Assembly (NCBI GenBank): GCA_041677685.1
Contig: JBAYPN010000031.1
Coordinates: 1-7,796 of the forward strand
Source: an archaeon
Lineage (GTDB): Archaea > Iainarchaeota > Iainarchaeia > Iainarchaeales > CSSED10-239
Length of the DNA: 7,796 nt
Direction of reading: 5' to 3'
In this document: positions 2-7,796 of the stretch, in pieces
Position numbering within the stretch: the stretch's first letter is position 1
How the letters are laid out: every line of letters begins with the position of its first letter
Notes under the pieces: model-generated
Database searches by the model: none
Seen by the model: only the letters and a program-made list of their open reading frames with translations
What the model was told of the DNA's origin: nothing
Program-made: the position numbers and the translations under genes

Positions 2-286
2 TATTGTTCTGAAAATAAAATCAATATTGTACAGTTGTTAATGGATTTATACTCTAAAAAATATAATAACTACCCAAAAGATATTGTAAAATTATATGTT
101 AAATATATAAAACCTACAAAAGACTTCTGTTGGTATTTTGGAGTAGACCTAATGTCTAAAAAAAATAGTTTGATTGAAAAATTAGAAAAAGATACAAAAA
201 TTAAGTATAATAATTATATAATTAACAATTGGATTCCTAAAATTAGTAAAAAAATAATTGGAAGGGAATATTATATTACAAAGTGA
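2..286 (+). CDS. Hypothetical protein, 3' end of a CDS open to the left window edge (5'-partial)
   Basis: The frame of track ORF 35..286 has no stop from nt 2 up to TGA 284-286. The TTG at 35 is therefore only the first possible start inside the window. The sequence is rich in Lys/Asn/Ile/Tyr and I recognise no motif. It sits directly upstream of a PEP-utilising mobile-domain gene, so it could be the ATP-grasp (PPDK_N-like) partner, but nothing here shows that. Confidence 0.5.
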   Translation, partial: YCSENKINIVQLLMDLYSKKYNNYPKDIVKLYVKYIKPTKDFCWYFGVDLMSKKNSLIEKLEKDTKIKYNNYIINNWIPKISKKIIGREYYITK

Positions 287-315
287 ATTAGGTGAAACTG
301 TAAGGAGTAATAAAC

Positions 316-633
316 ATGATCTTAAAAGGTATTGTAGCATCTAAATCAATTAAAGGAGTTTCTGGAAAAATAAGAATAATTAATAAGAACAATATTAGTA
401 GTTTTAAAAAAGGAGAAATATTAGTTTCTTATGATACTAACCCTAATTATCTAGTAGCTATGAAAAAATCTAAAGCTATACTTACAGAATCTGGAGGCTT
501 ATTAAGTCATGCTGCAATTGTTTCTAGAGAACTAAATATTCCTTGTATTGTAAATATTAAAAGTATTACTAAAAAACTAAAAAATGAACAGTTTGTAAAA
601 ATTAATTTTGAAAAAGGGGAAATTGAGTATTAA
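316..633 (+). CDS. PEP-utilising enzyme mobile (phosphohistidine swivel) domain protein, stand-alone
   Basis: SD AAGGAG at 302-307 lies 8 nt upstream of ATG 316. The 105-aa product carries the swivel-domain signature ...KGEILVS..TNPNYLVAMKKSKAILTESGGLLSHAAIVSRELNIPCIV..., with TxxGGxxSH holding the phospho-His. This is typical of PF00391-type domains from PEP synthase, PPDK and enzyme I. Confidence 0.85.
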   Translation: MILKGIVASKSIKGVSGKIRIINKNNISSFKKGEILVSYDTNPNYLVAMKKSKAILTESGGLLSHAAIVSRELNIPCIVNIKSITKKLKNEQFVKINFEKGEIEY

Positions 634-662
634 GTTAGTAATAATTAATAATTTGTATTATT

Positions 663-872
663 ATGAAAGAGATAAAAGGAATAACTTTATCTAAAGGATA
701 TGCAAAAGGTAAAATCCAATTTATATCTGATGCAATGGATCATAAAAAAGCAGCTAAGATATTTAAAAAAGGAAATATACTAGTTACACATATACTATTT
801 CCTGAGTTTAACCCTGTATTTTATAAAGCTAGCACTGTTGTATGTGCTGCTGTTAATCTTTTTAATAAATGA
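663..872 (+). pseudogene. Decayed or truncated paralogue of the PEP-utilising mobile domain, lacking the catalytic His motif
   Basis: The 69-aa ORF aligns with the N-terminal half of the upstream gene (IKGITLSKGYAKGKI...FKKGNILVTH..FPEFNPVFYKAS versus LKGIVASKSIKGVSGKI...FKKGEILVSY..NPNYLVAMKKSK). Where TESGGLLSH should be, it reads TVVCAAVNLFNK and then stops. The motif is not recovered in either other frame. No SD precedes ATG 663. Confidence 0.45.
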
Positions 873-1031: not shown

Positions 1032-1886
1032 ATGAAAGTAAAACCTTTTATTAAATGGGCTGGTGGAAAAACACAGCTTATTAATAAAATTGAACCGGAA
1101 CTACCTATAAAAATAAATAGATATTTTGAACCATTTTTAGGTGGAGGGTCAGTTTTATTATTTATACTTCAAAAATATAACCCTAAAGAAGTAATTGTTT
1201 CTGATGTTAATTATGAACTTATTAATACTTATAATATTATTAAAAATAATGTAGAAGAGTTAATTAATTATCTTGAAATATATAAAAATAAACATTCTGA
1301 AAAATTTTATTACACTATAAGAGGACTTGAAAGTACTACTACAAAAAAACTAAAAATAAAAGTATTAAGTGATTCAAATTTAAGTGAAATTGAAAGTGCT
1401 GCAAAATTTATATATTTAAATAAAACTTGTTTTAATGGACTTTATAGAGTAAATAAAGAGAATAAATTTAATGTTCCTTTAGGAAAATATAAAAATCCAG
1501 AGATATATAATAAAGAAAATCTATTAAAATTATCAAAACTTTTAAAAAACATTGAAATTAAATGTTTTTCTTATGAAAAAATAAAAGATTTAGTTAAAAA
1601 AGATGATTTTATATATTTTGATCCTCCATATGATCAAATAAACAATAATAGTTTTACTACTTATACAGAATTTGATTTTATTAGAAAAGATCAAGAAAAA
1701 TTAAAAGATTTCTTTGATTTTTTAAATAAAAAAGGATGTAAGGTTCTTTTAAGTAATAGTTCTACAGATTTTATTAAAAGTTTATATAAAAATTACACTA
1801 TAAAAGAAATAGATGCAAGAAGAATGATAAATTCAGATTCAAGTAAAAGAGGAAATATTAAAGAAGTTTTAATAAAAAATTATTAA
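1032..1886 (+). CDS. Dam-like (alpha-class, D12 family) DNA N6-adenine methyltransferase, M1 of the R-M cassette
   Basis: The 284-aa product has the N-terminal KPFIKWAGGK and EPFLGGGSV (AdoMet-binding FxGxG) motifs. The catalytic DPPY (FIYFDPPYDQ) is at nt 1620-1631. This is the motif order of the Dam/DpnM/MboIA family (PF02086-type). Confidence 0.9.
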   Translation: MKVKPFIKWAGGKTQLINKIEPELPIKINRYFEPFLGGGSVLLFILQKYNPKEVIVSDVNYELINTYNIIKNNVEELINYLEIYKNKHSEKFYYTIRGLESTTTKKLKIKVLSDSNLSEIESAAKFIYLNKTCFNGLYRVNKENKFNVPLGKYKNPEIYNKENLLKLSKLLKNIEIKCFSYEKIKDLVKKDDFIYFDPPYDQINNNSFTTYTEFDFIRKDQEKLKDFFDFLNKKGCKVLLSNSSTDFIKSLYKNYTIKEIDARRMINSDSSKRGNIKEVLIKNY

Positions 1887-1899
1887 AGGAGTGTTTTAT

Positions 1900-2412
1900 A
1901 TGATTAAAGATGGAAAAGGTGGAGCAAATACAAAGACTGGTCTTTTTTTTGAAAAAAGAGCTTCTTTAAAAGATGTTTTTCTAAAAATTAATGGTTTTTC
2001 AATAAAACAAGATGATCTTTTTTTAAACAATAAAAAAATTGCAACTTTTTATACAAAAAATAAAATTTATACAAAATTACTTGCTAAAAATAATATTAAC
2101 TATAAAGATTATATTTCAAAGAAATTAATTCCAGATGATTGTTTATTAATATTAAATAATAGTACTTTATTTATTATTGAAATTAAATTTCAAAATGTAT
2201 CCGGCTCTGTAGATGAAAAACTACAAACTTGCGATTTTAAAAATAAACAATATAATAAATTATTAAACCCATTAAATATTAAAGTAAAATATGTGTATTT
2301 ATTGAATGATTGGTTTAAAAGCAATAATTATAAGGATACTTTAGATTATATTAAATCTGTTAATTGTTATTATTTTTTTAATGAGATTCCTTTAGAATTT
2401 TTTAATTTTTAA
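1900..2412 (+). CDS. Putative type II restriction endonuclease, PD-(D/E)xK fold, 170 aa
   Basis: SD AAGGAG at 1886-1891 lies 8 nt upstream of ATG 1900. The track's GTG at 1891 overlaps the SD and is unlikely to be the start. The motif ...LIPDD(2131-2139)...LFIIEIK(2179-2187)... fits P-D-x14-E-x-K. The gene lies between two methyltransferase genes, the M-R-M order known for MboI. I recognise no similarity to DpnII or MboI endonucleases, which are ~280-290 aa. Confidence 0.6.
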   Translation: MIKDGKGGANTKTGLFFEKRASLKDVFLKINGFSIKQDDLFLNNKKIATFYTKNKIYTKLLAKNNINYKDYISKKLIPDDCLLILNNSTLFIIEIKFQNVSGSVDEKLQTCDFKNKQYNKLLNPLNIKVKYVYLLNDWFKSNNYKDTLDYIKSVNCYYFFNEIPLEFFNF

Positions 2413-2468
2413 TTCGGCCAGCTACCCTCTTTAGAAAAAGATATATACATTTACTACTATATATTTAT

Positions 2469-3278
2469 ATGAACTATTATAATTCTTCAGATTTTAAATT
2501 ATACAAAGGAAATTGTATAGATATTTTAAAGAAACTACCTGAAAATTCAGTAGATTTAATTTTTGCAGATCCTCCTTATTTTCTTTCAAATAATGGTATT
2601 TCTTGTAAAGCAGGAAAAATGGTTTCTGTAAATAAAGCAAAATGGGATGTTTCTTCTGGTTTTGAAAAAGATTTAGAATTTAATTTAAATTGGCTTTCTG
2701 AAGCAAAAAGAGTACTAAAAGATAATGGTAGTATTTGGGTATCTGGAACAATGCATAATATTTATCAAATTGGATATGGTTTTCAAAAACTTGATTATCA
2801 TATATTAAATGAAATAAGTTGGTTTAAACCAAATGCACCTCCAAACCTAAGTTGTAGATTTTTTACACATAGTCATGAAACTTTATTGTGGGCTAGAAAG
2901 GATAAATCTTCAAAACATAAATTTAATTATAATTTAATGAAAGAATGGGATGATAATATAAGTGAAAGTGGAAAACAAATGAGAAGTGTTTGGTCTATAC
3001 CTTTAACTTCTAAGTTTGAAAAGATTAATGGCCCTCATCCAACTCAAAAACCTATAGAACTCTTAAAAAGAATTATTTTATCTTCTACTGATAAAGGAGA
3101 TTTAGTATTAGACCCATTTAATGGTTCTGGAACTACTGGTATTGTATCTAAGATGTATGGTAGAAAATATATTGGAATTGATCTTGAGAATAAATATCTT
3201 GATTTAACTATTAAAAGATTAGATTCTATTAAAAATAAAATTATTGTTACTGAAAGGCAGGGTGCATCTAAGTTTTGA
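2469..3278 (+). CDS. Beta-class DNA N6-adenine methyltransferase, DpnA/MboIC-like, M2 of the R-M cassette
   Basis: The 269-aa product has the catalytic motif IFADPPYFLSN near the N-terminus (nt 2568-2579) and the AdoMet motif LDPFNGSGTTG near the C-terminus, which is beta-class order (PF01555-type). Long stretches resemble what I recall of DpnA (M.DpnIIB): ADPPYFLSN.G, PNLSCR.FTHS.ETLLWARK, GKQM..VW, HPTQKP..LL.RIIL.ST..GD..LDPF.GSGTTG. No SD is present, and a TATA-like aaagatatataca sits ~25 nt upstream of the ATG. Confidence 0.9.
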   Translation: MNYYNSSDFKLYKGNCIDILKKLPENSVDLIFADPPYFLSNNGISCKAGKMVSVNKAKWDVSSGFEKDLEFNLNWLSEAKRVLKDNGSIWVSGTMHNIYQIGYGFQKLDYHILNEISWFKPNAPPNLSCRFFTHSHETLLWARKDKSSKHKFNYNLMKEWDDNISESGKQMRSVWSIPLTSKFEKINGPHPTQKPIELLKRIILSSTDKGDLVLDPFNGSGTTGIVSKMYGRKYIGIDLENKYLDLTIKRLDSIKNKIIVTERQGASKF

Positions 3279-3311
3279 TAATTTTAAATTTTTTGAAAAG
3301 ATTTTAAGGTT
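3276..3311. repeat. Right copy of the 36-bp direct repeat, starting exactly at the M2 stop codon
   Basis: tgataattttaaaTtttttgaaaagattttaaggtt. Its first three bases are the TGA stop of the 2469..3278 CDS. It matches 923-958 at 35 of 36 positions. Confidence 0.9.
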
Positions 3312-3387
3312 TTTCTTTAAAAAGATTAATTTAAAAGCGTATCTACATAATATTTATTTAATACATATAGTATAAAGAGGTAATTTT

Positions 3388-3537
3388 ATGAAAATATTAA
3401 AAGAACCAGAATATAAATACAAGTTAAATAATTGTGACAAAGGTTGTTCTCAAAAATATGGTTGTGATTATTGTGGGCACGATTGTAACAATGATTGTTG
3501 GTATGATTGTAAAAACGATTGTAAAAACGATAAATAA
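3388..3537 (+). CDS. Cys/Asp-rich 49-aa small peptide, candidate RiPP precursor (not in the ORF track)
   Basis: SD AGAGG at 3376-3380 lies 7 nt upstream of ATG 3388, and the stop is TAA 3535-3537. My translation is MKILKEPEYKYKLNNCDKGCSQKYGCDYCGHDCNNDCWYDCKNDCKNDK. It has 8 Cys and 7 Asp, all in the C-terminal 34 residues after a 15-aa Lys/Glu-rich N-terminus. A radical SAM/SPASM gene follows on the same strand. Confidence 0.75.
   Translation: MKILKEPEYKYKLNNCDKGCSQKYGCDYCGHDCNNDCWYDCKNDCKNDK
3481..3531 (+). repeat. Tandem 12-nt coding repeat (gattgtNNNNNN, four units plus a partial fifth) inside the peptide gene
   Basis: The units are gattgtaacaat, gattgttggtat, gattgtaaaaac, gattgtaaaaac, then gat. 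The last two full units (3505-3516 and 3517-3528) are identical. Each unit encodes D-C-x-x. Confidence 0.9.
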
Positions 3538-3549
3538 TTCTTAATGTGA

Positions 3550-3909
3550 TTAACTGTACTCTCAGACTATATATACAATCTAGAAATTAAGCAAGAAAAA
3601 AATAAAATTACTATCTCCACTAAGTATTATGGTTTAGAAGTTGGAAAATGTACTGTAATTTATAAAAATTTAGCTTGGACTATTGATTCAATTAATGTAG
3701 ACCAAAATTTTTGGAATTATAAAATTGGTACAAAATTAATACATAATATTCTTTTTTTAACTAATTATAATTTAAAAAAAAGTATATCTAATAAAAAAAT
3801 AGATTTAATTAATTTTTTTAAAAAAATAGGCTTTAATTCAAAAAAAATAAATAATAAAATATTATTAAAACCTAATTTAAATAAAATTGAAACTAAATTA
3901 AATCCTTAT
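3550..3909 (+). CDS. In-frame open region upstream of the radical SAM CDS with GNAT-like motifs and no defined start codon; either an N-terminal domain of the maturase or a decayed separate gene
   Basis: There are 120 stop-free codons in the same frame as 3910..5043, with no ATG, GTG or TTG among them. The other two + frames close repeatedly across this span. My translation contains ...YGLEVGKCTVIYKNLAWTIDSINVDQNFWNYKIGTKLIHNILFL...KKIDLINFFKKIGFNSKK.... This resembles the GNAT beta4-alpha3 acetyl-CoA loop (degenerate) and the C-terminal FYxKxGF-type motif. Immediately upstream, an in-frame ATG (3544-3546) is followed directly by TGA (3547-3549). Confidence 0.45.
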
Positions 3910-5043
3910 TTGTATAATTTTAAAAAAGTATATCTTAATACTTATAATAATTCAATAGTTAAATTAGATTTCAAAGATGATATTATTAAATTTAAACCAA
4001 AATTAATGAAATTAGATTTTTTAGTTCCAATTTTAACTGATTTTAGATCTATATTTAAATCAATGATTGATAATGGAGAAAGTAATGGAATAAATCTAGT
4101 TACAACATATTCTTGTAATTTAAATTGTAATTATTGTTTTGAAGGCCAAAATAAAGATAAAAGAATAATTAAAGATATTTCTAAATATAATGAAATTTGG
4201 AAGTATATCTTACCAAAGATTACTAATCCTTTTTCAATAGCTTTTTTTGGTGGTGAACCTACACTTAATAAGGATTCAATTTATTTTTTTACTAATAAGA
4301 TAAGAGAATATTCAAAAAAGAAAAAAACAAAATATTATTTAAAAATGATTACAAATGGTACTTTAATAGATAAAGACTTTGTTAATTTTTTTAAACCTAA
4401 TGAATTTTCGCATATTCAATTAACTTTTGATGGTAATAAAAAAAGACATAATGAAGTTAGAGGTTATTATGATAAAATAATAGATTCTATTAAAGAAATA
4501 TATCCAATAACTAGTTCAATAGGGGTAAGATATAATATAACTAAAGATAATTGGACTGAAATTCCAATATTTATTAAAGATTTAACTAAAAAAATACCTT
4601 TAAATGTTCAAAAGAAAGTTTATTTGTCATTAGGATTTATTGATTCAAAAGATGTACAAATATCTGAATTGGATTTAGAAAAAGCAATTAAATCTACTAT
4701 TAAATTAACTAATAATTCAAATATTCGTTTTTTATCAAAACCAACTCAGAAAATTAAAAATTGTCCTGCACAACAAAAAAAAGAAGCATGGATTGATTTT
4801 GATGGTAGGAAATATTTTTGTGAAAGAGTGATTGGTCAAAAAGAATATGAAATAACTGATACTTCTAAATTTGATAATTTTTATCCTAAAGACTGTTTTT
4901 CATGTAAATTATATCCAATATGTGGTGGATATTGTTGGGTTCAAAGTGAACTTAAACAAGATTATTACTTTAATTGTCTTTATTCTAAGGCTATTGCTGA
5001 AGAAGAAATAAAAAAATATCTTTCAAAAGGTGCTAAAAAATGA
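3910..5043 (+). CDS. Radical SAM enzyme with a C-terminal SPASM domain (peptide-modifying maturase type); the true start is probably upstream of the listed TTG
   Basis: The CxxxCxxC motif (CNLNCNYC) is at nt 4114-4137, followed by FFGGEPTL (the GGE SAM motif) and ITNGTLI. The SPASM signature is complete at 4762-4977: CPAQQKKEAWIDFDGRKYFC (C-x13-G-x4-C), then CFSCKLYPICGGYC (C-x2-C-x5-C-x3-C), then a distal Cys in YFNC. That predicts two auxiliary [4Fe-4S] clusters. The TTG at 3910 has no SD, and the frame stays open for 120 codons upstream. Confidence 0.9.
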   Translation: MYNFKKVYLNTYNNSIVKLDFKDDIIKFKPKLMKLDFLVPILTDFRSIFKSMIDNGESNGINLVTTYSCNLNCNYCFEGQNKDKRIIKDISKYNEIWKYILPKITNPFSIAFFGGEPTLNKDSIYFFTNKIREYSKKKKTKYYLKMITNGTLIDKDFVNFFKPNEFSHIQLTFDGNKKRHNEVRGYYDKIIDSIKEIYPITSSIGVRYNITKDNWTEIPIFIKDLTKKIPLNVQKKVYLSLGFIDSKDVQISELDLEKAIKSTIKLTNNSNIRFLSKPTQKIKNCPAQQKKEAWIDFDGRKYFCERVIGQKEYEITDTSKFDNFYPKDCFSCKLYPICGGYCWVQSELKQDYYFNCLYSKAIAEEEIKKYLSKGAKK

Positions 5044-5555
5044 ATATTACTATTACGAAAGATAAAAAACAACATAATTGGAAAAAAATCCATAAAAGAA
5101 TAGTTAAAGATACAAGTTATGAATTTTTAGGTAATTTTACAGATAATACAAAGGATATAACAAACTATTATTGTTATGAAAAAGAAACAAATAAACCTAT
5201 AGGTTATCTCTCTCTTGGTTTTAGTACAGAGTATCATAGGTTTTATGGTATTAACTTTATTGGTATTTTACCAGAATATAGAAGAAAAGGGATTGCAAGT
5301 AAACTATTGTTTTTTGCAAAGAAACATGCAAAAAAAGAAGGTTATCTAAGGTTATTTACAGTTTACAGTACAAGTGAAAGTAATGTTTTTAATTTTAATA
5401 GAAAGCACTGTTTTTCTTCTGAAAGCACATATGTAAACATTCTTTTAGATTCAGGAAAGAGGCTTTATTTTTGTCCTTTTAGTTATTATGATAAAAATCT
5501 TAAGGAGAAGTCAAGTCTTCTTCACACTTTCAAGATAATGTTTTTGAGGTTATAA
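5040..5555 (+). CDS. GNAT-family N-acetyltransferase
   Basis: ATG 5040 overlaps the radical SAM stop (ATGA at 5040-5043). SD-like AAAGGTG at 5026-5032 lies 7 nt upstream. The product contains ...GINFIGILPEYRRKGIASKLLFFAKKHAKKEGY..., which is GNAT motif A (R-x-x-G-x-A/G acetyl-CoA pyrophosphate loop). At 171 aa it is the usual size for the family (PF00583-type). Confidence 0.8.
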   Translation: MNITITKDKKQHNWKKIHKRIVKDTSYEFLGNFTDNTKDITNYYCYEKETNKPIGYLSLGFSTEYHRFYGINFIGILPEYRRKGIASKLLFFAKKHAKKEGYLRLFTVYSTSESNVFNFNRKHCFSSESTYVNILLDSGKRLYFCPFSYYDKNLKEKSSLLHTFKIMFLRL

Positions 5556-6155
5556 CAAAAGAAGCTTACCATAATCTGTAAGATAAAGAAAACCATTCTT
5601 TTCTTCAATAAGACCCTTTTCTTTAAAGTCTCTTATATTATTATATATAGCAGTTCTTCCAAGATTAAGCTTGTCTGAATTTGCAAGCTCTGGAAGAGTT
5701 ATCTCTTTTTTAGAAATTTCTTCTAAAAGATCATAAGCCTTTTTACTAATATCAAAAGAAAGCTTTGGAACAACAACCATTTGGTTTATTTCAGGAGTAA
5801 AATATAAGATTTCTTTAATTTTATTACTTCTAGCATAACATCCTAGCATTATACCTATAGATTTAGGTTTTCTACCAGAAGTAATATCTACATATATTTC
5901 ATTTTCTTCTTCTTTATAGATTTTATCAATATTTATAATAATTTCCTTTGCAATCTCATAAACTTCATAAAGCGTTGTTTTAATTTCTTTAAATTCTATA
6001 TGTTTAAAGGTATTCTTAAGTTTTTCTTTAGTTTGTTTTTGATTATCGTCTGATTGTTTGTCCATTATTAGATATATTGTATCTGGTCCTATTCTTGTGA
6101 TTGCTCCAACCATTGGAGTAAATGAGTAAGTATTTGTTAAAAGTATTTTTTTCAT
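5550..6155 (-). CDS. Csa3-like regulator: N-terminal CARF-like Rossmann domain plus C-terminal winged helix-turn-helix
   Basis: The 201-aa product starts with a beta-alpha-beta pattern (KKILLTNTYSF.P..GAI....PDTIYLIMDK...). It then reads ...IYVDITSGRKPKSIGIMLGCY..., recalling the Csa3 segment ...DLTMGMRMINTLILLG... from memory. The C-terminus looks like a wHTH (ITLPELANSDKLNLGRTAIYNNIRDFKEKGLIEEKNGFLYLTDYGK). An AGGA SD-like element lies ~9 nt upstream of the start. This call rests on pattern recognition only. Confidence 0.55.
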   Translation of the reverse strand: MKKILLTNTYSFTPMVGAITRIGPDTIYLIMDKQSDDNQKQTKEKLKNTFKHIEFKEIKTTLYEVYEIAKEIIINIDKIYKEEENEIYVDITSGRKPKSIGIMLGCYARSNKIKEILYFTPEINQMVVVPKLSFDISKKAYDLLEEISKKEITLPELANSDKLNLGRTAIYNNIRDFKEKGLIEEKNGFLYLTDYGKLLLL

Positions 6156-6160
6156 AGTTT

Positions 6161-6191
6161 TTTTTCCTAATATTTTATTTTTCCTAATATT
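6161..6191. promoter_or_regulatory. Two perfect 14-nt direct repeats (tttttcctaatatt) with 17-nt periodicity just upstream of the Csa3-like gene; candidate operator
   Basis: The copies are at 6161-6174 and 6178-6191. On the gene's strand they read aatattaggaaaaa twice. The proximal copy contains the putative SD and the distal copy abuts a TATAAT-like element. They lie within the 222-bp divergent intergenic region 6156-6377. Confidence 0.35.
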
Positions 6192-6377
6192 ATATGTTGT
6201 TAGTTTACTTTTTAAATGTATTTTTTTAAAGCTTTGTTCAAAAAAAAGTGTATTTGTTTAATTTTTGACAAACCCTTTTTAAACTATTCTGTACTATTTA
6301 TTATATATCTGTTCAGAAAAAAGTGAATGTAATAATTTTATCTAAAAATATATAATTAAAAGAAAATGTGTTAATAA

Positions 6378-7130
6378 ATGGATAAATATATAGAATTAAA
6401 CAAAATAAAGATCTTTTCTCTCGGCATACCTGCTATAAATATACTTTCTGACCTTGATCTTAATAGATCAGAATTTTCAAAAATAGTTTTTTCTCTTAAC
6501 AGAATTGAATCTTGTTCAATAAATATACATATATCTGAAAAAGAAAACAATTTTGATTTTATTTTCCATAGAGATCATCTAGAAAATAACTTTAATCTCG
6601 AAAACACTTTATTTGATCTAAATGCTTCTTTTAAAGGACAAGTCAATATTTTTTTAGGAGTTTTTATAACCCCTTATTTTAAAAAAAATGATTTTAAAAT
6701 CAAAGAAAACTATTTAGACACAAAAGAAGATTCTTTAAAAAATTTAGATCTTCATTTTCTAAGTTACTTAGATAAAGTTTTAGAAGAAGCAACAAAACCA
6801 AATAGTTTTTCTAGTAATAAATCTTTAAACATGTGTGTTATTGTAATGCCCCCAAATCTATTATATAATTTTTCTAAAGAAAAAATTAATATAGACCCAA
6901 AAAAAATTGAAAAAGAATTTTATGATATTGTTAAAGAAAAAACAAAAAAAGCAGATTTAACTATATATATAGATGATTACAATAGAGTAAATAACCTTGA
7001 AAATTGTTTAAGTTGTGAGGAACTAAATATAGCTGCAGCAAATTATCTAAATGGTTTATTTGAAAGTAAAAAAAAAATATTTAATTTAATTAAAAATAAC
7101 CCTAAAGAATTACAGATACTTTTAAAATAG
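6378..7130 (+). CDS. Hypothetical protein, 250 aa, function unknown
   Basis: This is a long ORF in very AT-rich DNA. It has no SD, and a TATA-like aaaaatatataatt at 6344-6357 sits ~27 nt upstream of the ATG. I recognise no confident family signature. A weak FtsZ/tubulin-like strand pattern is discussed under findings. Confidence 0.7.
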   Translation: MDKYIELNKIKIFSLGIPAINILSDLDLNRSEFSKIVFSLNRIESCSINIHISEKENNFDFIFHRDHLENNFNLENTLFDLNASFKGQVNIFLGVFITPYFKKNDFKIKENYLDTKEDSLKNLDLHFLSYLDKVLEEATKPNSFSSNKSLNMCVIVMPPNLLYNFSKEKINIDPKKIEKEFYDIVKEKTKKADLTIYIDDYNRVNNLENCLSCEELNIAAANYLNGLFESKKKIFNLIKNNPKELQILLK

Positions 7131-7167
7131 TTTTAAAAAAAAAAATTAAATAAAAGGAGAATAAAAT

Positions 7168-7796
7168 ATGAAGTCAGAAGTAATTAAAAAAACCATTAAA
7201 AACAACCTAAGGTTTGTGCATGTTAAAAACAAATCAAATGACATAGTCATAAACCTATATGTAAAGGTAGGTTCTTTTGATGAAACTGAAAATACAAGAG
7301 GAATCTCTCATTTTATTGAACATATGCTCTGGCAAGGAACAAAAAACCACACTGGTTTTGAAATAAGACAAAAAATAAAAGATCTTGATGCAACCTACAA
7401 TGCCTATACTTCTATTAAAAGAACTTGTTATAGTATCTTTGGTCCTAAAAGACATTATGAAAAGCTTTTAAAAATTCTTTTAGATGTTGTTCAAAATCCA
7501 AGTTTTGATAAAGCAGAAATAGAAAGAGAAAGAAATGTTATTTTAGATGAATATAAAAGAGGATTAGATGATCCTAAAGTAATTTTAGATAAAAAAATAC
7601 ATTCTTTTATCTTTAAAGATACTAATCTTTCATATCTTCCAATAGGTACTTTTGAAAACATAAGCTCTTTTATAAGAGAAGATTTAGTTTCTTTTTATGA
7701 AAAACATTATTTTTCAAACAACATGATAATAAGTGTTACTGGTAATCTAACAGAACCAGAAAAATTAATTGAAAAATATTTTACTTTAGAAGAAAA
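7168..7796 (+). CDS. M16-family (pitrilysin/insulinase-type) zinc metallopeptidase, 3'-partial (runs off the window)
   Basis: SD AAGGAG at 7154-7159 lies 8 nt upstream of ATG 7168, and the frame stays open to the window end, so it is absent from the ORF track. My translation is MKSEVIKKTIKNNLRFVHVKN...VGSFDETENTRGISHFIEHMLWQGTKN.... It contains the inverted zinc motif HxxEH (HFIEH, nt 7309-7323) in the canonical G.SHF.EHM.F.GT context, followed downstream by ER.VILDE, the family's distal zinc-ligand Glu region (PF00675-type). Confidence 0.88.
   Translation, partial: MKSEVIKKTIKNNLRFVHVKNKSNDIVINLYVKVGSFDETENTRGISHFIEHMLWQGTKNHTGFEIRQKIKDLDATYNAYTSIKRTCYSIFGPKRHYEKLLKILLDVVQNPSFDKAEIERERNVILDEYKRGLDDPKVILDKKIHSFIFKDTNLSYLPIGTFENISSFIREDLVSFYEKHYFSNNMIISVTGNLTEPEKLIEKYFTLEE

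Follow-up and report, generated by a model that had tools for sequence, protein, structure and literature searches.

What would a short peptide crowded with cysteine and aspartate, a radical S-adenosylmethionine (SAM) protein with a SPASM domain, and a GNAT acyltransferase make together when their genes follow one another on a single strand of an uncultivated archaeon's DNA? The question is raised by a 7,796-nt contig assigned to the Iainarchaeota (JBAYPN010000031.1 of assembly GCA_041677685.1, analyzed over its whole length and hereafter called the window; G+C 22%), whose cassette locus is present on 15 public contigs, including JGI 3300028603 Ga0265293_10018575 and three NCBI metagenome-assembled genomes, one of them JALNZW01. 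We consider it very probable that the locus encodes a peptide-modifying radical SAM system and, with rather less assurance, probable that the three genes form an operon for a peptide made on ribosomes and modified after its translation (RiPP). A preliminary description had picked out the small open reading frame (ORF) with its Shine-Dalgarno sequence, the same-strand radical SAM protein with CNLNCNYC and GGEPTL motifs and a full SPASM domain, and the GNAT gene overlapping the latter by ATGA; all of these were located, and their positions are given below.

The precursor peptide gene (3388–3537; all cassette features are on the forward strand) encodes the 49-residue product MKILKEPEYKYKLNNCDKGCSQKYGCDYCGHDCNNDCWYDCKNDCKNDK, and a Shine-Dalgarno-like AAGAGGT (3375–3381), read directly from the sequence, ends 6 nt before its ATG at 3388. 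Residues 1–15 (3388–3432) constitute a putative leader, and residues 16–49 (3433–3534) a Cys/Asp-rich core with five C-x-x-D units starting at C29; a 12-nt tandem repeat, GATTGTAAAAAT, present in 4.2 copies (3481–3531), encodes the D-C-x-x units. The peptide contains 8 Cys, 7 Asp and 1 His, against an average of 1.5% Cys in proteins of the window (binomial P for at least 8 Cys = 6e-7). The same ORF was called independently by public gene callers on homologous contigs, and homologues were found as P0021, P0022, P0023 and positions 387–557 of locus L182. No family for the peptide was found in Pfam or in NCBIfam (the latter at E≤0.1). A second ORF, 3434–3544, overlaps the gene in another frame and is a by-product of the 12-nt repeat.

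The maturase gene (3556–5043) is read here from an inferred GTA start in a frame open from 3550, and its product would comprise a degenerate GNAT-fold domain, a short remnant resembling a RiPP recognition element (RRE), a radical SAM core and a SPASM domain. The [4Fe-4S] motif CNLNCNYC (CX3CX2C, 4114–4137) supplies C189, C193 and C196, which are invariant in 20 homologues, and the SAM-binding motif GGEPTL (4249–4266) was placed by sequence and by the same alignment. The SPASM domain (4762–4977) has the seven Cys expected for two auxiliary Fe-S clusters, arranged as C-x13-G-x4-C ... C-x2-C-x5-C-x3-C ... C; among the 20 homologues C405, C424, C462 and C476 are invariant, C452 and C458 nearly so, and C449 is present. 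Of the profile matches that the preliminary description had proposed to look for, PF04055 (50 bits, cut-off 29.5) and the SPASM model TIGR04085 (29.4 bits, cut-off 27) were found, while the Pfam SPASM model PF13186 gave no report. An AlphaFold (AF2) model built from the shallow 20-sequence alignment reached a pLDDT of 74, and its best structural match was CteB, the SCIFF thioether synthase, followed by anSME, SuiB and TigE. Sequence search of the PDB was set aside as a means of discriminating chemistry, as only the generic radical SAM core was matched (anSME, over residues 187–302, and CteB).

Overlapping the maturase stop codon by ATGA is the gene for the partner GNAT (5040–5555, 171 aa; PF00583 45.2 bits, cut-off 20.7), which has an intact motif A, R-R-K-G-I-A (5280–5297). 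Its AF2 model (pLDDT 89) shows a complete GNAT fold with GNAT structural neighbours; because these mix protein N-terminal acetyltransferases with small-molecule acetyltransferases, its substrate cannot be read from the structure. In three loci (L179–L181) that correspond to window positions 3975–5555, the radical SAM protein is 97% identical to that of the window and the GNAT only 67%, from which we conclude that GNAT alleles have been swapped by recombination at the ATGA junction.

The three genes, in this order, recur in three clades: the window and L172; P0002/P0003 (L007–L009); and P0031 (L182). In every one of them a GNAT follows the enzyme, whereas the flanks otherwise differ, and the mosaic extends to close relatives, since homology of the window to L172 runs only over 3274–5335 and homology to L175 only from 5058 onward. 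The enzymes of the three clades are 39–49% identical, P0002 (486 aa) being 47% identical to that of the window. A check proposed in the preliminary description came out in its favour, in that a small CxxD-containing ORF stands directly upstream of homologous enzymes: the peptide gene precedes every intact radical SAM gene that has upstream DNA (L010 and L092 are uninformative, as contig ends cut these loci), and it is missing or decayed where the radical SAM core has been deleted. In L175–177 and L178 the core is internally deleted and the peptide gene absent; L183 and L171 lack the core too, and their peptide gene is either truncated or left stranded beside a frameshifted enzyme remnant. At least four different deletions of the radical SAM/SPASM core were found (L175 9549–10000, L178 605–1173, L183 3863–5186, L171 190–640 and L184 2485–2955), each leaving the N-terminal domain and the partner GNAT. 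The GNAT is thus kept in L175–177 (97% identical), L178 and L184, and P0081 is a direct fusion of the N-terminal domain to the GNAT. Because all of the radical SAM-less N-terminal domains retain the linker, and some also a stub or tail of the radical SAM region, they are derivatives of the full enzyme by deletion with several different end-points. This co-loss of peptide gene and radical SAM core supports a substrate-enzyme pair.

The small ORF itself is kept in four further lineages. In L008 it encodes MKVILKPKFKLVTNCDKGCSQKYGCDYCGHDCRNDCGCDNAKE and ends 2 nt upstream of the gene for P0002, and the C-terminal part of an L008-type peptide is found at contig ends in L007 and L009; in L182 it encodes MKIILNPKSVLTNLNCNKGCEKFGGGCSGDCSMDASCPDCSSDCSSDCSSDCSSDK upstream of P0031, which is itself followed by an overlapping GNAT; and in L172/L173, whose DNA is ~90% identical to that of the window, the peptide carries two leader substitutions. 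The distance from peptide gene to enzyme gene is 2–44 nt in every clade. An MK[IV]xLxP leader, N-C-[DN]-K-G-C and (C-x-x-D)n repeats are common to all precursors, and 15 positions are invariant in five distinct ones (M1, K2, P7, C16, K18, G19, C20, K23, C26, C29, D32, C33, D36, C37 and D40), six of them Cys and three Asp. The number of CxxD units varies between homologous precursors, and the xx varies freely (GH, NN, WY, KN, RN, SS). All three strain-level single-nucleotide polymorphisms in the peptide gene are synonymous. Judged by substitution patterns, purifying selection acts on all three ORFs: compared with L172, the peptide has a dN/dS of 0.03, the radical SAM core one of 0.14, and the N-terminal domain and the GNAT one of 0.26 each.

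The family of maturase and peptide is extremely rare. Homologues of the enzyme were sought by a word-indexed search of 5.8 billion proteins and by an exhaustive HMMER scan of 1.84 billion representative proteins. Besides the enzyme's own cluster, the former returned only two with more than 45% identity, P0002 and P0003. In the latter, three matches reached E≤1e-30, namely the query's own fragment, P0003 and P0031, a full-length relative of 481 aa with 39% identity; the next matches were two truncated derivatives, P0032 and P0081, below which scores drop to about 100 bits and consist of ordinary radical SAM/SPASM maturases of ~430 aa. Relatives among the 1.84 billion representatives thus number only about five. 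For the precursor, the whole protein collection holds three homologous clusters. The family thus comprises three clades and a few remnants, and covariation statistics are correspondingly thin. The next-best enzyme relatives belong to Pacearchaeota, Aenigmatarchaeota and Woesearchaeota.

The N-terminal domain of the maturase (3577–3873) has a GNAT fold in which a degenerate acetyl-CoA loop, W-N-Y-K-I-G, takes the place of R-x-x-G-x-G/A. PF13508 matches the domain of the window at E=0.0019 (19 bits, below the cut-off of 27) and matches seven of the eight N-terminal domains of the family, with a best E of 3e-8. The AF2 model has the order beta4-alpha-beta-alpha-beta2 (pLDDT 70–84), and in Foldseek the domain alone retrieved the GNATs 9mto and 3fix at E of about 5e-6 to 2e-5. 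With the loop register set by alignment to the partner GNAT, the acetyl-CoA loop is intact in none of the eight domains, the first Gly being replaced by K, R or N ([WLIRT]-[NQ]-[YFMQ]-[KRN]-I-G). Descent of this domain and the partner GNAT from a recent duplication was considered and is unsupported: hhalign matched the two in register but only weakly (E 0.006, probability 6%), and what is shared is the fold. Between this domain and the radical SAM core lies a short linker (3925–4041; VYLNTYNNSIVKLD ... KLMKLDFLVPILTD), possibly a truncated RRE. In an alignment with 12 distant maturases, such homologues carry an ordinary RRE-like N-terminal domain where the window enzyme keeps ~40 residues whose resemblance is by eye only.

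The upstream part of this enzyme is missed by gene callers, which start the maturase at TTG 3910 and so cut it to 377 aa. We reject this start because conservation with P0002 extends upstream of it and no ribosome-binding site (RBS) precedes it. The 120 codons upstream of TTG 3910 can be aligned to the N-terminal ends of P0002 and P0031, ATG-started orthologues that are fusions of the same architecture, and the preliminary description's hunch about these codons was well founded: by sequence comparison they are a translated part of the enzyme, its GNAT-fold domain, under purifying selection. Over 3550–3909 dN/dS is 0.26; no stop has arisen among 36 substitutions within the 354 nt compared (3556–3909), and in a neutral simulation the probability of at most 18 amino acid changes and no stop, given 36 substitutions, was 1.5e-4. 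An in-frame ATG at 3544 is followed immediately by TGA in all strains, as it is in the diverged L172, L171 and L178. We read the resulting ATGTGAT (3544–3550) as the RBS of the enzyme gene and not as a start plus stop, since at least eight other genes of these genomes have the heptamer [AG][TG]GTGAT 3–7 nt ahead of their called ATG or TTG. ATGTGAT is kept in the window, L172, L171 and L178, with AAGTGAT in L175 (start regions: window 3544–3558, L172 1782–1796, L178 593–607, L175 9537–9551). Because the heptamer is genome-typical, the enzyme probably starts, weakly and non-canonically, at GTA 3556, five nt downstream (ATA in L175). The codon of L178 that corresponds to 3550 is a stop, and from the GTA onward the four differences between L178 and the window are all synonymous. 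A start of this kind would hold the enzyme scarce relative to its substrate.

Two other accounts of the ATG-TGA were rejected. An alternative code reading TGA as Gly or Trp is at odds with the lack of internal TGA in other long ORFs of the window, L001, L002, L172, L175, L007 and L010, with the several genes that end in TGA and with the use of TGG for Trp. A start-stop mini-ORF, or a nonsense mutation making a pseudogene of the N-terminal domain, is at odds with the recurrence of the heptamer before other starts and with the purifying selection on that domain. Peptide and enzyme ORFs share a frame in the window (separated, over 3388–3558, only by TAA, three codons and TGA), in L172 and in L171, but not in L008; once ATGTGAT is taken as an RBS, the shared frame is probably coincidental.

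Is this a known system? By profile score the maturase lies nearest to peptide maturases and is a member of no named family. Its best-scoring NCBIfam models are geopeptide TIGR04280 (104 bits), TIGR04463 "rSAM_vs_C_rich" (98 bits), PapB (94.1 bits) and CefB NF038107 (84 bits). Geopeptide, TIGR04463 and CefB enzymes, like those of CcpM (TIGR04068), pair a radical SAM/SPASM protein with a short peptide, but the scores of the window enzyme against these four (57–104 bits) are far below their cut-offs of 400–600, and none of the four is described with an N-terminal GNAT fold, as judged by model names and by alignment to ordinary homologues. The concern that the enzyme might cluster with sulfatase maturases was not borne out, as anSME (TIGR03942) scored 53.9 bits against a cut-off of 349, compared with 84–104 bits for the peptide maturases and CteB as best structure, and a sulfatase gene was present in no locus examined.

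The closest functional parallels are those in which thioethers are made in Cys-rich precursors. SCIFF systems (CteB/CteA, Tte1186; TIGR03974) likewise place a Cys-rich precursor of ~45 aa starting MK.IK. before a radical SAM/SPASM thioether synthase, CteB being the best structural match noted above; but the window maturase reaches only 54.3 bits (cut-off 425), its peptide gave no match to the SCIFF family, and the N-terminal RRE of CteB is complete. In SCIFF peptides Thr and other residues serve as acceptors, not a CxxD repeat. QhpD, also a radical SAM/SPASM enzyme, forms several Cys-to-Asp/Glu thioethers in the small Cys-rich QhpC, the gamma-subunit of quinohemoprotein amine dehydrogenase; genes of that dehydrogenase occur in neither the window nor related loci (qhpA and qhpB are in no locus examined), and the QhpD model is outside the top NCBIfam matches. 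PapB/PapA (freyrasin, NF047865), the third-best NCBIfam match, combines a radical SAM/SPASM enzyme with a short precursor bearing repeated Cys...Asp motifs, and PapB forms thioethers from Cys sulfur to the beta-carbon of Asp and accepts Cys-Xn-Asp with n = 0–6 (PMC9413430). The window enzyme nevertheless falls far short of the PapB cut-off of 340, and its precursor has C-x-x-D instead of C-x3-D/E repeats, a spacing that PapB tolerates in vitro; a leader of ~15 aa, a GNAT fold in place of the normal RRE, an obligatory GNAT partner and an ultra-AT-rich uncultivated host are further differences.

As for the acyltransferase, MccE is a familiar case of a GNAT serving as a tailoring or immunity enzyme of a RiPP cluster. 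GNATs are established RiPP tailoring enzymes, as in the selidamide acyltransferases and PasC of a daropeptide cluster, stand-alone proteins encoded together with the maturase (PMC10849128). Unlike these, the present cassette has a further GNAT fold, a degenerate one, within the radical SAM protein itself, and its active GNAT outlives the peptide and the radical SAM core. Surveys have predicted radical SAM RiPP clusters in archaea, including DPANN, none of which has been characterized (PMC12144867), and our searches of the literature (ranthipeptide/GNAT, CxxD/radical SAM, SPASM/GNAT, and ranthipeptide in the candidate phyla radiation or DPANN) returned no description of such a system or of the architecture degenerate GNAT fold, short linker, radical SAM, SPASM. 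By similarity, then, the cassette resembles ranthipeptide- and SCIFF-type systems; by their thresholds it is none of PapB, SCIFF, QhpD or anSME, and the preliminary description's judgment that this is not a described family holds for the profile libraries and the literature searched here. Its distinguishing features are the C-x-x-D ladder, the short leader, a GNAT fold in place of a recognizable RRE, an obligatory GNAT, a non-canonical start in one clade, and the host. The chemistry is likely to be familiar, while the architecture and the population dynamics are not; most likely the product is a crosslinked peptide of a kind not yet described.

How might such a product be made? We propose that the 49-residue peptide is the substrate, with MKILKEP... 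as its short leader and N-C-D-K-G-C plus the five C-x-x-D units as its core. The N-terminal region of the enzyme, that is the degenerate GNAT fold and the shortened RRE-like stretch, would hold the peptide while the radical SAM cluster and the two SPASM auxiliary clusters made intramolecular crosslinks in the core. By analogy with PapB and QhpD, these may be thioethers in which each Cys sulfur is bonded to a carbon of the Asp that follows three residues later, giving a ladder of small rings. Because the Cys and Asp of CxxD are invariant and both PapB and QhpD provide precedent, Cys-Asp thioethers are the linkage we put forward, tentatively, since other outcomes taken together are at least as plausible. 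What the comparison of loci adds to this chemistry is the conservation pattern only, in which the Cys and Asp of the units are kept while the xx is free. Given the precedent of RiPP GNATs, the translationally coupled GNAT may then acylate an amine of the peptide (that of the invariant K18, of K23, likewise invariant, or of a new N-terminus), or else it may protect the producer from the product.

The surroundings of the cassette are those of a mosaic locus. Between a pair of phosphoenolpyruvate (PEP)-utiliser genes and the peptide gene, the window carries what looks like a DpnII-like restriction-modification (RM) cassette (1032–3278) made up of a D12-class Dam methylase (1032–1886), a weak PD-(D/E)XK nuclease match (1891–2412) and an N6_N4 methylase (2469–3278); a further, type III-like RM system lies upstream in L001. 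The PEP pair, a protein of ~270–296 aa with no known family and a stand-alone PEP-utilising (swivel) domain of ~100 aa, recurs within a few kb of the cassette (window 35–872, L172 3866–4708, L171 645–1840 on the reverse strand, L175 6208–7300 on the reverse strand, L184 1260–2391), and split PPDK_N fragments also occur nearby. Ahead of the pair in L184 stands another radical SAM/SPASM gene, unrelated to the first, with an acidic upstream peptide (...DYIDDGGSDPDDSDDHQDYFT). Downstream of the GNAT, the window carries a Csa3-like CARF/winged helix-turn-helix gene (5550–6155, reverse strand), a 250-aa ORF (6378–7130) with no match in Pfam, NCBIfam or PADLOC, and the start of a peptidase M16 gene (7165–7796) that runs off the window; neither of the latter two accompanies the cassette in other loci. 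Window positions 5058–6903 correspond to 10019–11201 plus 19818–20516 of L175, a 70-kb contig of a close relative in which an 8.6-kb block, lacking in the window strain, separates the Csa3-like gene from the 250-aa ORF and holds genes for Cas12a (TIGR04330, 1230 bits), a 115-aa protein, Cas1 and Cas2 as well as a gap, the probable site of the CRISPR array. Because this block is missing, the Csa3-like gene of the window is an orphan of a type V-A locus. Its candidacy as a part of the cassette was dismissed, as L007 has an unrelated gene behind the GNAT and the Csa3 gene of L175 is part of the Cas12a locus. HtpX (M48) and M16 were likewise rejected as dedicated leader proteases, since neither is conserved across loci and the M48 gene fits housekeeping HtpX models (338.8 bits, just under the cut-off of 355). 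Rfam, terminator and promoter scans of the locus gave nothing above background, and a tRNA scan of related contigs found none. Traits of the window, L175 and L007 that suit an archaeon of the DPANN type no less well than a bacterium of the candidate phyla radiation include a Csa3/HFX_2341_N regulator, NurA (L007) and a PRK13208-type valyl-tRNA synthetase (774 bits), and many genes in these three lack a Shine-Dalgarno sequence.

Several observations weigh against reading the cassette as a RiPP operon. The enzyme reaches no named NCBIfam maturase family (curated cut-offs 340–600 for the best families), and because these cut-offs are all missed its chemistry cannot be transferred by family membership. 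No PqqD/RRE family match to the maturase appeared at E≤10 in Pfam or E≤1 in NCBIfam, and AF2 confidence in the RRE-like stretch is below 50 pLDDT. The preliminary description had noted that no transporter or protease is adjacent; an M16 fragment does begin at 7165, but none is conserved with the cassette, HtpX (L007/L010) and M16 (window) being unshared. No ATG, GTG or TTG lies in frame between 3550 and 3910, so that the window clade lacks a canonical start. The radical SAM core has been deleted repeatedly while the N-terminal domain and GNAT persist, and these two may have a role independent of the peptide. The deletion pattern looks like either a producer/immunity-only polymorphism or such an independent role: the persisting GNAT could confer immunity or resistance and have been kept once production was lost, by analogy with orphan bacteriocin immunity genes, or the N-terminal domain and GNAT could be a pair with a role of their own. 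Finally, a peptide with so many Cys, Asp and His ligands and no family assignment could be an unmodified, metallothionein-like mini-protein binding metal or an Fe-S cluster, with the radical SAM and GNAT genes as mere neighbours. We consider this very improbable, as the peptide is strictly tied to an intact radical SAM core across clades and lost or decayed upon its deletion, sits a short distance upstream of the enzyme gene in every clade, and has a Cys spacing unlike the CxC/CxxC of metallothioneins.

If the peptide is a radical SAM substrate, its chemistry may still be another. The enzyme may form sactionine (alpha-carbon) thioethers or C-C or C-O links, it may bring about Cys oxidation or epimerisation, or it may turn the peptide into a cofactor or a metallophore. 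The maturase is roughly equidistant (54–104 bits) from chemically diverse families (geopeptide, TIGR04463, PapB, CefB, Nif11-type, DynA, YhhB, SCIFF and anSME), its structural neighbours are chemically mixed as well, and Cys-rich RiPPs, such as the bufferins, are able to act as metallophores (PMC11626156). Against this stands the identity of the invariant residues of C-x-x-D with the donor/acceptor pair of PapB and QhpD, and we regard a different chemistry as unlikely. The DpnII-like RM system on one side of the cassette and the Csa3-like CARF regulator on the other, the same GNAT-Csa3 junction in L175 followed by Cas12a-Cas1-Cas2, and the mosaic flanks would suit a defence island with the cassette as its anti-phage or conflict module, in which the radical SAM enzyme makes an antiviral molecule or the modified peptide acts within the cell; PADLOC pVip models match at 44–55 bits. 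These matches, however, cover only the generic N-terminal part of the radical SAM core (55 bits over residues 181–309), pVip NF038283 reaches 52.5 bits against a cut-off of 180, viperins have neither SPASM domains nor Cys-rich peptide partners, and neither Csa3 nor the RM genes accompany the cassette in L172, L007, L010 or L182, all of which makes a defence module very unlikely. It is about as improbable that the window copy is decaying and non-functional through loss of the enzyme's start codon. The missing ATG/GTG/TTG and the frank decay at L171, L183, L175 and L178 would fit such a copy, but the frame from 3556 to 3909 has stayed open under constraint, and the genome-typical RBS stands immediately before GTA 3556, from which point only synonymous changes separate the window from L178.

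The RiPP operon reading admits a bolder extension, to which we give only a slim chance. The degenerate GNAT fold may dock the stand-alone GNAT as a pseudo-tandem pair like that of MshD or NMT, P0081 being a literal example of paired GNAT folds, and couple radical with acyl-CoA chemistry on the CxxD ladder; at the extreme, acetyl-CoA might be a radical substrate as in Elp3, and at the least the GNAT fold might replace the RRE in leader recognition. The outcome would be a new structural class of peptide from genome-reduced, episymbiont-like microbes, made by an enzyme translated from a GTA start. Elp3 is, to our knowledge, the only well-known enzyme to combine radical SAM with a GNAT fold and to draw acetyl-CoA into radical chemistry. 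It is likened here by architecture only; its domain order is reversed, it lacks a SPASM domain and acts on tRNA, whereas in the window enzyme the CoA loop of the GNAT fold is degenerate.

If the chemistry is confirmed, the cassette would represent a new precursor and enzyme family among thioether (ranthipeptide-like) RiPPs, and its minimal 15-residue leader with a freely expandable C-x-x-D ladder would be attractive for engineering small stapled rings. A GNAT fold standing where the RRE normally is would, if true, widen the rules for RRE-based genome mining, and the apparent non-canonical start of the enzyme is a case in which standard ORF callers truncate the protein. The hosts are very AT-rich, uncultivated organisms with hallmarks of small genomes, from which no modified peptide has been characterized, and the way in which peptide and radical SAM core are lost time and again while the GNAT stays resembles producer/immunity dynamics in their natural populations.

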